DNA from: a virus
Taxonomy: Duplodnaviria; Heunggongvirae; Uroviricota; Caudoviricetes
DNA: 4,656 nt
IMG/VR virus record: IMGVR_UViG_3300029104_000146
Coordinates: 1 to 4,656 of that record
Direction: 5' to 3' (one strand)
Shown here: positions 94-4,656 of the stretch, piece after piece
How positions within the stretch are numbered: the first letter of the stretch is position 1
Layout of the letters: the number at the start of each line of letters is the position of its first letter
The notes under the pieces: model-generated
The model's input: the letters and a program-made list of their open reading frames with translations, nothing else
Told to the model about the DNA's origin: nothing
Databases searched by the model: none
Program-made: the position numbers and the translations under genes

Positions 94-2634
94 ATGAGCA
101 CTGATAAAGAAACTTTTGCACTATATTGCGAAGCAAAAAATGACAAGGTCAGAAAACGCCTTGGGATTAAAGGTGGTTTTTACTGGACTACAGCAAAAAA
201 ATTATCTGTTGCCATCTCCCGCTGCATTACCGCAATGGATGATAATGATTATGACGAGGACGACTTTAAAAAACCTGTTCGCGTCCATTTACCCGTTGTG
301 AATGACCTTCCTCCAGAAGGCGTGTTTGATACTGAATTCTGCAACCGTTACGAAAAAGGCGGGGAAGATGGTATCACAATGATATTTATAGCTCCTTCCC
401 CTTCAGCTCAGGACAAACCTGCCAGCACTGACAATACCAGCAGCGAAGCTGTTACAGGTGTCAGCCGTGACTGCGATGAACAAAGTGACTCTCAGACAGA
501 GAACGCAGATAAAAGCGAATCCCCGGACAGCAACGATGACTGCCCTGAATGTGAAATCCCCGTCTCCACCCTGAGTCTTACCCATCGCTTCCTGCACCTC
601 TACTTCTTTGGTCAGGAGTTCGACGAGAAATACAAACATCACGCCACACCAGAACAACGCAAGGACGTGATCCGCATCGAAATGGATATGGAAGATGGAA
701 ACATACAGAGCCTGCTTACTGCAGTACGTTCGCATCCTGAGCTGGATAAGCTGACAAACCATCATCTTGGAAGACTGGCGCATTCGGTGGAAAAGGCATT
801 CACTCACGCAACAACACGCCGTATCAGCCCGGCAGAATTCGACAAGTTCATTTCCACCTGGATGAAGACTGACTACCTTGATCAGGGGCTGTTGACAAAA
901 GAGTGGGCAAAGGGAAATTGCGTATCTGAAATCAATCGCACCCCGTCCGGCGCTAATGCTGGCGGAGGAATTCTTACCGATCGCGGTGAAGGTTTTGTCC
1001 ACGATGATGCGTCAGTGGAACGTGACGTTGCCGCTGGCGTTCTGGCCCGTTCAATGGACATCGATATTTACAATCCACATCCGGCACACGCCAAACGCAT
1101 TGAAGAAATCGTTTCAGAGAATAAGCCGCCCTTTTCTGTTTTTCGTGACAAATTCATCGCCATGCCTGGTCACCTGGATTATTCCCGCGCGATAGTAGTT
1201 GCGTCCGTGAAAGAAGCACCAATTGGTATCGAGGCTACTCCCCACCGTGTTACCGAATATCTGAACAAAGTACTGACCGAAACCGATCATGCCAACCCTG
1301 ATCCGGAAATCGTGGATATTGCCTGCGGTCGCTCCTCTGCCCCTATCCCGCAGCGTGTAACAAAAGAAGGAAAACAGGATGATGAAGAAAAACCGCAGCC
1401 ATCTGGCGCAATGGCAGATGAACAGGCAACGACTGAAGCAGTGGAACCGGATACAACTGAACATAATCAGGACACGCAGTCGATGGATGCTCAGCCACAG
1501 ATAAATTCTGTTGATGCGAAATATCAGAAACTGCGTGCAGAACTCTATGAAGCCAGGAAAAACATTCCCCCCAAAAATCCTGTCGATGCAGATAAATTAC
1601 TGGCTGCTTCTCACGGAGAATTTGTTGAAGGGATTAGCGACCCGAATGATCCAAAATGGGTGAAGGGGATTGAAACCCGCGATTCGGTGAACCATAACCA
1701 GCAAGAAACGGAACAGAAAGGCCATAAAGCGGAACAACACAGTCCAAATGCGCAACAAAACGAGCCAGAAACGAAACAGCCTGAACCAGTAGCGCAACAG
1801 GAACCGGAAAAAGTCTGCACAGCCTGCGGTCAGACCGGCGGCAACTGTCCTGACTGTGGCGCGGTGATGGGCGACGCAACATACCATGAGACATTCAACG
1901 AAGAAAGCCAGGATGAAGCCCGGGAAAAAGATCCGGAGGAAATGGAAAGTGCCGGACTCCCGAACAAGGAGTGCACCGAAGGCGATCAACATGCCAATGG
2001 CAATAATGAAACAGGCGAGACAGCAAATCTCTTAATTAAGGTGAACGGTCATCGTGAAATCACATCCACCAGCAGGTTGTGGCACCATCTGATGATTGAC
2101 CTTGAAACAATGGGCAAAAATCCTGACGCACCAATAGCCTCAATAGGCGCTGTATTTTTCGATCCACAAACCGGAGAGCAGGGGCCTGAATTCAGCAAAA
2201 TAATTGATATGGGTACATGTGGCGGCACTGTCGACATAAGCACAATCGAATGGTGGCTGGTACAGTCCAGCGAGGCCAGAACTGCAATTTTGGTAAATCA
2301 AATCCCATTAGATGATGCGCTGCTGCAACTCAAGGAATTCATCAGCGAGCATTCAGATGAAAAATTCGTGCAGGTATGGGGCAATGGTGCAACTTTCGAC
2401 AACGTGATTTTACGCCGTTCATACGAACGACAGGGTATCCCCTGCCCGTGGCGCTACTGCAACGATCGCGATGTACGCACAATCGTTGAGCTGGGGAAAG
2501 CCATAGACTTCGATGCCAGAACGGCTATTCCATTCGAAGGTGAGCGCCATAATGCACTTGATGACGCTCGTTACCATGCAAAATACGTTTCAGCTATCTG
2601 GCAAAAACTGTTCCCGAATCAAGCTGATTTTTAA
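94..2634 (+). CDS. RecE (exonuclease VIII)-like prophage protein with C-terminal DEDDh 3'-5' exonuclease domain
   Basis: Uninterrupted 846-codon ORF with an SD. The N-terminal ~570 aa resemble, from memory, the dispensable N-terminal region of Rac RecE (e.g. [93 protein letters not shown]). The C-terminal 180 aa carry DEDDh motifs: Exo I MIDLETMG, Exo [15 protein letters not shown], Exo [16 protein letters not shown]. Position is immediately upstream of xis-int. Confidence 0.85.
2092..2631 (+). other. DEDDh (DnaQ/oligoribonuclease-like) 3'-5' exonuclease domain, residues 667-846 of the 846-aa protein
   Basis: D669-x-E671 (MIDLETMG), D769 (TFDNV), H819-x4-D824 (HNALDD) followed by YHAKY. Spacing and order match the DEDDh family as in E. 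coli Orn (WIDLEMTGL ... H-x4-D). Confidence 0.7.
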
Positions 2635-2638
2635 TGTT

Positions 2639-2654
2639 CAACCGTCGCCGGTTG
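2639..2654. repeat. Perfect 6-bp inverted repeat CAACCG-N4-CGGTTG in the intergenic region between the RecE-like gene and xis
   Basis: Read directly: caaccg tcgc cggttg, starting 5 bp after the TAA stop at 2632-2634. No T-tract follows, so it is unlikely to be an intrinsic terminator. Function unknown. Confidence 0.5.
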
Positions 2655-2683
2655 TGGTTGGTATTCTGCAACTGGCGCGTTCC

Positions 2684-2687
2684 GGAG
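2684..2687 (+). promoter_or_regulatory. Shine-Dalgarno (GGAG) for xis
   Basis: GGAG lies 8 nt upstream of the ATG at 2696. Confidence 0.5.
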
Positions 2688-2695
2688 TGATGGTC

Positions 2696-2965
2696 ATGAG
2701 CGAACAGTACCTGATTACGCTCGACGAGTGGAAACCTAAGCGGTTCAGTCTCCCAATAACAAACACTACCCTGGTGAAATACGGAAAACTTGGATACATC
2801 GTTCCAAGACCACAAAAAATTCGTGGGCGTTGGCTGATAGATCGCCGAGCAGTATTTGTTGGACCTGGTGAAACAGGAATTGCGCCGGAAATTCATACTG
2901 GCGATGATGATGCACTGAAGGAGATTTTAACTCATGTCACCGAGGCCACGAAAAAACAGCACTGA
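2696..2965 (+). CDS. xis: Excisionase (Xis-like winged-helix recombination directionality factor)
   Basis: 89-aa product MSEQYLITLDEWKPKRFSLPITNTTLVKYGKLGYIVPRPQKIRGRWLIDRRAVF... parallels lambda Xis (YLTLQEW ... RRWVRE ... REYLFHESAV). Lies immediately upstream of int and overlaps its start by 32 nt, as in lambda. Start chosen at ATG 2696 because of the GGAG SD; ATG 2690 and GTG 2687 are in-frame alternatives. Confidence 0.7.
   Translation: MSEQYLITLDEWKPKRFSLPITNTTLVKYGKLGYIVPRPQKIRGRWLIDRRAVFVGPGETGIAPEIHTGDDDALKEILTHVTEATKKQH
2918..2923 (+). promoter_or_regulatory. Shine-Dalgarno (AAGGAG) for int
   Basis: AAGGAG lies 10 nt upstream of the ATG at 2934, inside the xis coding sequence. Confidence 0.5.
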
Positions 2966-4052
2966 CATAGCCGGACTTTACGAAAAATTTGATCGCAGAA
3001 CTGGCAGAGTTTACTACCAGTATAAAAACCCTGTGACTGGAAAATTTCACGGGCTCGGAACAGACAAAGGTAAGGCAGAAAAAATCGCTTCCACAGCCAA
3101 TCAGCGAATAGCTGCAGCAGAGGCTGAATATTTCATGCGCAAAATTGATGAAAGTCCGTCAGCAACAAAGCGTCGGGGTATCAGATTAAAGGCATGGGTT
3201 GATCGATATCTGAAAATACAGGACACGCGACTGAAAAATGGAGATATTGCAGCTACAACCCACAAAGAAAAAGTGCGAATGGCTGCATACCTGGTTTCCC
3301 GCCTGGGAAACCACCCATTGAAAGAACTGGAGGTAAGAGACTTTGCATTAATACTGGACGAGTGGATGGATAAAGACATGGTCAGCACAGCAAGAGTAAA
3401 TCGCGGATTATGGGTTGATATTTATAAAGAAGCACAGCATGCAGGGGAAGTTCCTCCTGGATGGAATCCTCCGGAGGCTACCCGTAAACCGATCCCTAAA
3501 GTGACCAGATCCAGACTCACCCTGGAAGACTGGCAAAAAATTTACAACGCAACGCCTGAAAAACACTTTATCCGTAACGCAATGCTTCTTGCGATTGTTA
3601 CTGGTCAGCGCCGTGATGACATTTGCCACATGCGTTTTTCAGATGTGTGGAACGAACACTTGCATATCACCCAGGGAAAAACCGGAATGCGTCTGGCGTT
3701 ACCGCTTACACTACGCTGTGATGCCATTGGGATAACGTTAAAAGAAGTTATTGATGGGTGCCGAGACAGAATATTAAGTCCATATCTAATCCATAGTCGG
3801 CACCAGAAACAACCAAAGCCGATGAGTAAAGACAACCTGAGCGACTACTTTGCCAAAGCACGGGATCTGGCTGGGATAACTCCACCAGCAGGAAAAACTC
3901 CGCCAACATTTCATGAACAACGCTCTCTATCAGAACGGCTGTACCGTGCACAGGGTATCGATACAAAAACATTACTAGGACATAAAGTCCAGGCAACCAC
4001 CGATCGCTATAACGATACTCGAGGTCAGGAATGGGTTAAGTTGGTTATTTGA
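2934..4052 (+). CDS. int: Lambda-family tyrosine recombinase (phage integrase)
   Basis: 372-aa ORF. N-terminal arm-binding-like segment (YYQYKNPVTGKFHGLGTDK, cf. lambda Int YYCYRDPRTGKEFGLGRDR). Catalytic signature residues in the lambda order: R226 (VTGQRRDD), K249 (QGKTG), H327/R330 (TFHEQRSLS), H350 (LLGHK), Y359 (TDRYNDTRGQEW, cf. lambda SQYRDDRGREW). Confidence 0.93.
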   Translation: MSPRPRKNSTDIAGLYEKFDRRTGRVYYQYKNPVTGKFHGLGTDKGKAEKIASTANQRIAAAEAEYFMRKIDESPSATKRRGIRLKAWVDRYLKIQDTRLKNGDIAATTHKEKVRMAAYLVSRLGNHPLKELEVRDFALILDEWMDKDMVSTARVNRGLWVDIYKEAQHAGEVPPGWNPPEATRKPIPKVTRSRLTLEDWQKIYNATPEKHFIRNAMLLAIVTGQRRDDICHMRFSDVWNEHLHITQGKTGMRLALPLTLRCDAIGITLKEVIDGCRDRILSPYLIHSRHQKQPKPMSKDNLSDYFAKARDLAGITPPAGKTPPTFHEQRSLSERLYRAQGIDTKTLLGHKVQATTDRYNDTRGQEWVKLVI

Positions 4053-4115
4053 CAAACACCATATGGAATATCCGTCACCATCTCAGGAAAAAAGTGTTGT
4101 AAAATGCGTGGCCTA

Positions 4116-4153
4116 GTTTTGGGGAAACGTTTTGGAGAGATTTTGGAGAAAGG
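4116..4153 (+). repeat. Three tandem direct repeats TTTTGG(G/A)GA at about one helical turn spacing; candidate arm-type (P') integrase binding sites
   Basis: TTTTGGGGAAACG (4117-4129), TTTTGGAGAGA (4130-4140), TTTTGGAGAAAGG (4141-4153), with unit starts 13 and 11 bp apart. They sit 65-100 bp downstream of the int stop, where lambda has P'1-P'3. Assignment as Int arm sites is an inference. Confidence 0.4.
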
Positions 4154-4205
4154 AAAAAATTGAATAAATTCAAAATCCTGAAAGTGTCCCGCCTTATGAA
4201 TAAGA

Positions 4206-4211
4206 AGGTGG
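4206..4211 (+). promoter_or_regulatory. Shine-Dalgarno (AGGTGG) for potC
   Basis: AGGTGG lies 7 nt upstream of the potC ATG at 4219. Confidence 0.55.
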
Positions 4212-4218
4212 AACTCGA

Positions 4219-4656
4219 ATGATCGGTCGACTGCTTCGCGGCGGTTTTATGACCGCTATCTACGCGTACCTGTATATCCCAATCATTATTTTGATTGTGA
4301 ACTCCTTTAACAGCTCGCGCTTTGGCATCAACTGGCAGGGTTTTACCACCAAATGGTATAGCCTGCTGATGAACAACGACAGCCTGTTACAGGCAGCACA
4401 GCATTCACTAACAATGGCGGTGTTTTCGGCGACGTTTGCTACGCTTATCGGTTCACTGACGGCAGTTGCGCTGTACCGTTATCGCTTTCGCGGTAAGCCG
4501 TTCGTTAGCGGAATGCTGTTTGTGGTGATGATGTCGCCAGATATTGTGATGGCGATTTCTCTGCTGGTGCTGTTTATGCTGCTGGGTATTCAGCTTGGCT
4601 TCTGGTCGCTGCTGTTCTCGCATATCACCTTCTGCCTGCCGTTTGTGGTGGTGACG
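4219..4656 (+). CDS. potC: Spermidine/putrescine ABC transporter permease PotC (5' portion, 146 codons; continues beyond the window)
   Basis: Translation MIGRLLRGGFMTAIYAYLYIPIIILIVNSFNSSRFGINWQGFTTKWYSLLMNNDSLLQAAQHSLTMAVFSATFATLIGSLTAVALYRYRFRGKPFVSGMLFVVMMSPDIVMAISLLVLFMLLGIQLGFWSLLFSHITFCLPFVVVT matches my recollection of E. coli PotC essentially residue for residue. Hydrophobic membrane-spanning character and a good SD support it. No stop before the window end. Confidence 0.85.
   Translation, partial: MIGRLLRGGFMTAIYAYLYIPIIILIVNSFNSSRFGINWQGFTTKWYSLLMNNDSLLQAAQHSLTMAVFSATFATLIGSLTAVALYRYRFRGKPFVSGMLFVVMMSPDIVMAISLLVLFMLLGIQLGFWSLLFSHITFCLPFVVVT

Follow-up and report, generated by a model that had tools for sequence, protein, structure and literature searches.

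Phage 21 and e14 insert in icd, where a phage-borne copy replaces the 3′ end of the gene; icd has no downstream operon partner. In lambda, attB lies between gal and bio, and the P′ arm of attP, ordered C′-H′-P′1-P′2-P′3, lies next to int. The boundary between potB and potC in Escherichia coli is a further prophage insertion site, and several prophages have been named after it: PP_potB in O157:H7 clade 8 (PMC9997748), phi-potB in CFT073 (PMC3573123, PMC4632033), prophage J, at potB/potC, in O104:H4 (PMC3486847) and, in another report, 'prophage 5 (potC)' (PMC10925052); potC is also given as a Stx-phage site in LEE-negative STEC (PMC8065619). The insertion site is thus already known, published and very common. 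The available text of these six papers, which name the site, describes neither its core, nor the replacement of the PotB tail, nor the expression of potCD.

In the current work we analysed a stretch of 4,656 nucleotides (hereafter the window), the whole of a virus record of only that length, which represents a predicted prophage fragment together with its host flank. We conclude that positions 4053–4222 are, with high probability, the attR of a lambdoid (Rac/CP-933N-like) prophage, integrated at a 14-bp core within the last codons of potB.

Results

The plus strand of the window is filled by four co-oriented genes, exonuclease, xis, int and potC, as assigned from the list of open reading frames and Pfam:

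94–2634, plus strand: exonuclease, an early-left prophage gene, 846 aa (open-reading-frame list and Pfam; annotated 'exonuclease' in E. coli B4103-1)
2696–2965, plus strand: excisionase gene xis, overlapping the start of int (Pfam Exc, PF07825, 7.1e-5)
2934–4052, plus strand: int, a lambda-type tyrosine integrase, 372 aa (Pfam)
4219–4656, plus strand: potC, codons 1–146, running past the window end (identity to K-12 PotC)

The integrase carries an arm-binding N-terminal domain (Arm-DNA-bind_1, PF09003, 3.4e-21) in addition to the Phage_integrase domain (PF00589, 4e-19), and xis is annotated as the excisionase WP_000003742.1 in both B4103-1 and EDL933. A spacer of 166 nt separates the int stop from potC. 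That the downstream gene really is potC, as the first-pass annotation had it, and not a paralogue, is borne out by identity to K-12 PotC at 146 of 146 residues; in B4103-1 and EDL933 it is followed by potD.

The exonuclease combines a weak RecE (Exonuc_VIII-like) match in its N-terminal part (PF06630, 4.3e-12) with a strong Rv2179c-like 3′-5′ exonuclease (exoribonuclease) domain at its C-terminus (PF16473, 2.9e-66), and the long middle between the two domains is acidic and of low complexity. EDL933 retains just a 402-nt remnant of this gene.

The spacer and the start of potC contain the following elements, several of which overlap:

4053–4196, no strand: int-proximal (P′-like) att arm, phage DNA (contiguous with int and the other arm, unchanged, in the attP contigs L098, L099, L103 and L105)
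4095–4112, no strand: 18-nt box TGTTGTAAAATGCGTGGC (alignment of eight arms)
4103–4222, plus strand: open frame of 39 codons plus stop (sequence; bounded by TAA at 4100–4102)
4116–4149, plus strand: three direct arm-type repeats, GTTTTGGGGA (4116–4125), GTTTTGGAGA (4129–4138) and ATTTTGGAGA (4140–4149) (repeat search; third copy read from the sequence)
4160–4181, no strand: A/T-rich block TTGAATAAATTCAAAATCCTGA (conserved as TTGAnnnATTTCAAnACnCTnAAA in the arm alignment)
4197–4210, no strand: common core of 14 bp, TGAATAAGAAGGTG, containing the crossover region (four-way attP/attB/attL/attR alignment)
4205–4211, plus strand: native potC Shine-Dalgarno sequence AAGGTGG, 7 nt before the ATG (identical in K-12 attB; presumed ribosome-binding role)
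4211–4222, plus strand: displaced native potB end, codons E-L-E and TGA (identical to the K-12 potB 3′ end; detached from the potB body)

The assignment as attR is carried mainly by a comparison of the four forms of the site. TGAATAAGAAGGTG is found in attR (the window), attL (B4103-1), attB (K-12) and attP (IMG/VR contig L103), and the flanks are exchanged around it as site-specific recombination predicts. The empty site of K-12 reads ...tctcgtttgcTGAATAAGAAGGTGgaactcgaATGA, the window junction ...tcccgccttaTGAATAAGAAGGTGgaactcgaATGA and the potB end of B4103-1 ...cgtttgcTGAATAAGAAGGTGagcgaattagatgatTAA; attP consists of int, the arm and the core, followed by agcgaattagatgattaa..., and this joined form occurs in four IMG/VR contigs (L098, L099, L103, L105). 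About 4000 complete E. coli genomes represent the empty site: they match the window only from position 4197 onward, lack the arm 4053–4196, and have potB and potC adjacent. The junction shows the sequence features of the attR class, namely an adjacent arm-binding tyrosine recombinase, a shared core, empty sites and repeated arm-type sites.

The attP-form contigs are indirect evidence that an excised or circular form of the phage may exist. Two matches in a 'phages' collection were also considered as attP and rejected, since they are predicted prophages that include host flank. A further contig, L101 (IMGVR_UViG_2529292908_000002, ~4937–5200), has the same int and arm, then ...atgaataa, and then unrelated sequence, tcaggtgatccacttcccgg..., in place of potC or the partner arm of attP; this arrangement could be a secondary-site insertion or a recombinant.

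The other end of the prophage was read in E. coli O27:H7 B4103-1, which is 100% identical to the window over the searched stretch 3900–4656. Here pepT-potA-potB precede a lambdoid prophage that is degraded and rich in pseudogenes, and 28.6 kb separates the two copies of the core. The proposal that a prophage splits potABCD between potB and potC therefore stands: potC is not contiguous with potA-potB, which lie 28.6 kb upstream in B4103-1 and ~46 kb upstream in EDL933, and in B4103-1 no full-length potB adjoins potC at the junction. We also find that potB is completed by phage-encoded codons, a possibility that had been raised together with that proposal. PotB of B4103-1 has 287 aa, as opposed to 285 aa in the native protein, and is identical to K-12 PotB to residue 282, after which the native ending ELE and stop gives way to SELDD and stop from the phage arm. 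The gene is intact in the B4103-1 lysogen because the phage supplies this new tail. As for the B4103-1 prophage itself (NZ_CP024245.1, 3,550,368–3,579,004), the annotation lists its terminase, portal, tape-measure and tail genes as truncated pseudogenes, and it still has a dicB-ydfD-type region and four tRNA genes.

On the potC side, the ATG (4219–4221) overlaps the TGA (4220–4222) in the ATGA arrangement that had been noticed before, and the Shine-Dalgarno sequence of potC is kept at attR because it lies mostly inside the core. The first-pass annotation had further taken the frame ahead of potC to be a potB remnant of 39 codons, hitting phage DNA at its start. A frame of 39 codons is indeed open (4103–4219). 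Its potB match, however, is limited to the last eight codons (MNKKVELE, 4197–4222), because the attP/attB/attL/attR alignment puts the phage/host boundary at the core; the match of the empty-site genomes, which begins at 4197 and not at the start of the frame, likewise disagrees with a 39-codon remnant. Only the last three codons and the stop (4211–4222) are unambiguously bacterial, while the remaining ~31 codons are phage P′-arm DNA that happens to be open in this frame, for which the chance expectation is (61/64)^31 = 0.23. In the window arm and in seven related arms from other genera, the potB frame stays open over 33 codons or more ahead of potC.

Of 5426 complete E. coli genomes, 1399 (about 26%) carry the int-potC junction. 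A matching attL (potB-side) arm was found in 915 genomes, other lysogens having diverged arms. Across Enterobacteriaceae, 73 of 80 species representatives have the native PotB of 285 aa, with the tails ELE, DLE or ELG, and in most of these 73 species potC was found directly overlapping the potB stop by ATGA. The other seven combine a 287-aa PotB with a displaced potC, and their six-residue tails are VSDISD, ASELSE, VSDIDS, VSEIDS and PTDLDE. We considered whether the phage-encoded tail had been copied from the native potB of another species and rejected this, given that each of the 73 native proteins has 285 aa and one of the endings ELE, DLE and ELG. Since the native tails all differ from it, and since tails of the 287-aa type occur in the 80 species only where potC is displaced, the substitute tail is a feature of this family of elements rather than a borrowed native tail, as far as these 80 species show.

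The arm between int and the core is conserved in parts. The pattern TGTTGTAAAAT.CG.G.C in the 18-nt box does not vary among eight arms from five genera, whereas the flanks of the box diverge; at the leading position of the conserved box the window has GT rather than TT. The direct repeats follow the consensus TTTTGGRGA, the two proximal copies are kept in all eight arms, and we presume that they are binding sites for the N-terminal domain of Int. The A/T-rich block contains the palindrome TTGAAT-AA-ATTCAA (4160–4173). It resembles WATCAANNNNTTR and occupies the position of lambda H′, and we take it to be a candidate IHF (H′-like) site. The TTG at 4160 in this block is, at the same time, the start of a possible 20-codon upstream open reading frame (4160–4222), to which we return below. 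Seven species of other genera keep the box, the two proximal repeats and the A/T-rich block in the arm upstream of potC.

Hairpins were seen in several of these arms. In several relatives a complementary stem and then a T-run come after the box, a terminator-like arrangement that is missing in the E. coli arm. On the potB side, a stable hairpin lies 20–40 nt past the phage-supplied potB stop in every arm read, that is, in B4103-1 (L003, 38383–38470), L016, L018, L020, L036, L046 and L076; the one in L018 is a canonical GC stem with a T-run, and an automatic terminator scan of the potB-side arm of B4103-1 made no call. This hairpin is possibly the terminator of the potAB transcript in the lysogen, or else a terminator or processing site of int transcripts in the phage state.

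In three other genomes, att-arm DNA alone, with no int, lies between potB and potC. All three have a 287-aa, phage-type potB tail, and potC is found 344 nt downstream in Citrobacter sp. Awk 4 (L017, 2365–2708), 391 nt downstream in Citrobacter sp. NCU1 (L018, 2365–2755) and 1112 nt downstream in Enterobacter sp. Bisph1 (L046). Read from their sequences, these appear to be prophage scars fixed between potB and potC. Terminator-like hairpins, read by eye, flank both sides of the scars.

Evidence on expression was taken from a different strain, EDL933. Its xis-int-attR-potC region is 98% identical to the window over positions 2600–4656 (2057 nt), and its att arm is identical save one synonymous base in the core. 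Landstorfer et al. (PMC4048457) carried out strand-specific RNA-seq of EDL933 under eleven conditions, with low-depth SOLiD/Illumina libraries of 0.6–2.9 million reads. In LB, the RPKM values were 46 for potD, 18 for potC, 11 for potB and 5 for potA, with a comparable picture in most of the ten other conditions (PMC4048457 Table S4), and in 12 of the 13 libraries potC and potD exceeded background (Table S2). By contrast, int (Z1764) and xis (Z1765) of CP-933N are among the 144 genes for which no read was obtained in any condition (Table S3). These zeros are not a multi-mapping artefact, because int is present in a single copy in EDL933; the older EDL933 annotation labels Z1764 a 'partial integrase', and some of int may accordingly have gone uncounted.

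In addition, Zehentner et al. (PMC10469882) mapped transcription starts by Cappable-seq under eight conditions, and the available part of that source lists starts within 250 nt upstream of annotated genes. potA has a start at 1,677,500 in nearly all conditions. potD has one at 1,628,426 on the minus strand of NZ_CP008957.1, 17 nt before its ATG and inside potC, in two of the eight conditions; potD can therefore be transcribed apart from potC. For potC, int and xis, that part of the source lists no start within 250 nt upstream. A literature search gave nothing on the expression of potCD in CFT073 or Sakai, and the supplements of PMC4765031 contain no gene table with the loci considered here.

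Discussion

The data fit a simple scheme. A lambda-type integrase would have recombined the phage attP with TGAATAAGAAGGTG in the last codons of potB. At attL, potB stays intact by exchanging ELE for the phage-encoded SELDD and stop; at attR, potC retains the ATGA and its presumed ribosome-binding site, these lying within the core or on its right-hand side. The whole prophage separates potC and potD from the potA promoter. Judging from the EDL933 data, the lysogen would still transcribe potC and potD, relying neither on potA nor on read-through from xis-int, and potD would use its own start 17 nt upstream of its ATG. For potC, the most likely locations of the start are the 3′ part of int and the att arm, where a weak start may lie. 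Against independent transcription stands the result that no start is listed within 250 nt of potC and that no sigma-70 promoter scores above chance. On induction, to go by the sequence, the early-left transcript (exo-xis-int) would run on into potCD, because the E. coli arm has no terminator between int and potC.

The first-pass annotation had offered three routes to potC expression, namely read-through from int, a promoter in the att region, or a replacement supplied by the phage. In the lysogen the first of these is the least likely, given the silent int and xis, and for the second no start is listed within 250 nt. Four accounts of potCD transcription were weighed against these data, along with a possible role of the arm in potC translation.

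potC transcripts might start at a promoter internal to the coding region of int, at a distance of over 250 nt from potC. This is a tentative reading, and we think it somewhat doubtful, although it would reconcile potC expression with the lack of a canonical start within 250 nt. Internal starts form a separate class in PMC10469882, the available listing of which covers positions below 1.6 Mb, short of int. If the old 'partial integrase' entry takes in just a portion of int, its zero reads would be compatible with a start in the remainder. If Z1764 covers most of int, however, the same zeros count against it, and no promoter-like site in int scored above chance.

A promoter within the P′ arm (4053–4196), directed outward and driving potCD, is unlikely. 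The candidates are TTGGAG-16-TAAATT (4143/4165) and the TGTTGTAAAAT box. Transcription of potCD while int and xis are silent would agree with such a promoter, as would the conservation of the arm across genera and the two Citrobacter species in which 344–391 nt of arm DNA are all that lies between the phage-tailed potB and potC. Moreover, the top promoter-like match of the stretch 2600–4230 sits in the arm. That match, however, which is TTGGAG-16-TAAATT, scored 8.4 in the weight-matrix scan, where shuffled sequence gave a median top score of 10.5, and a sigma-70 consensus scan of 3800–4400 found no promoter. The lack of a listed start in the Cappable-seq data speaks against the arm as well, and its conservation is already explained by the Int arm sites and the IHF-like site.

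It is improbable that the lysogen expresses potC and potD only by read-through from the early-left operon exo-xis-int. The shared orientation of exo, xis, int and potC would permit it, and the scans found neither an intrinsic terminator nor a consensus promoter between the int stop and potC (the scan of 3800–4400 covered plus-strand terminators as well), in keeping with the lack of a listed start. Nevertheless, eleven conditions gave not a single read for int or xis, whereas all but one of the 13 libraries show potC and potD above background, which argues against read-through, and, as noted, the single copy of int leaves no room for a mapping artefact. In the arms of two Citrobacter genomes (L094 and L095), furthermore, a GC-rich stem with 7–8 T, seen by eye though not called by the automatic scan, stands between an int remnant and potC.

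We give similarly little credence to the idea that the arm keeps the cut-off genes working at the level of translation. Here a conserved 20-codon upstream open reading frame, starting at TTG 4160 (GTG in one relative), would recreate the translational coupling to potC, perhaps with a weak outward promoter. The frame is preceded by GGAGAAAGGA and runs to the native potB stop, which shares bases with the potC ATG; eight arms, belonging to five genera, have in common the TTG or GTG start, the length of 60 nt to the potC ATG and the openness of the frame. Among its 13 arm-derived codons, third positions are the most variable (5.8 vs 3.4 and 4.1), which is compatible with a translated leader restoring the coupling of potC, a reading of low probability. 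The same bases are equally explained by the IHF-like site, by core-type Int sites resembling attB, and by a fixed spacing in the intasome. The part of PMC10469882 available lists no start within 250 nt upstream of potC, which counts against a promoter accompanying the frame.

A polar insertion, which would leave potC and potD effectively silenced and lysogens with no PotABCD-dependent spermidine uptake, may be dismissed as very improbable: potC and potD are physically apart from the potA promoter and the scans find no substitute, but such a polar loss of potCD expression is not seen in EDL933, where potC and potD RNA is at or above the level of potA and potB, both genes are intact in lysogens, with a PotC identical to the K-12 protein, and some 26% of complete E. 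coli genomes carry the arrangement.

We therefore retain the reading of 4053–4222 as attR, with potCD probably transcribed on their own in the lysogen. As a discovery this carries little weight, the site being published, in routine use for naming STEC and UPEC prophages, and filled in roughly one complete E. coli genome out of four. Its interest is rather that about a quarter of E. coli strains would run their spermidine-uptake operon as two transcription units, the downstream half of which is expressed according to published data.

Compared with known systems, the closest are at the same locus: CP-933N of EDL933, PP_potB of O157:H7 clade 8, phi-potB of CFT073, prophage J of O104:H4 and the Stx phages of LEE-negative STEC. 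CP-933N shares the xis-int-att arm-potC sequence with the window (98% over 2057 nt, with one base of difference in the arm). The prophages at the potB site differ, however, in cargo and size, from the degraded 28.6 kb of B4103-1 to 44 kb in CFT073 and ~46 kb in EDL933.

The arm resembles the lambda P′ arm in its layout, with the int stop, three tandem arm-type repeats, an A/T-rich IHF-like block and the core in succession, and in the arm-binding domain of the integrase, for which the binding is putative here. Unlike that of lambda, the attB at potB falls within a coding sequence that is itself part of an operon, and the core and arm-site sequences differ. Phage 21 and e14 at icd offer the nearest parallel for the choice of target: in both cases a lambda-type integrase acts in the 3′ end of a coding gene and the phage arm supplies the terminal codons. 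Two features set the potB site apart from icd. The substitute comprises only five codons and changes the length of PotB from 285 to 287 aa, rather than being a near-synonymous copy of a longer gene end, and the insertion cuts two cistrons off from their promoter.
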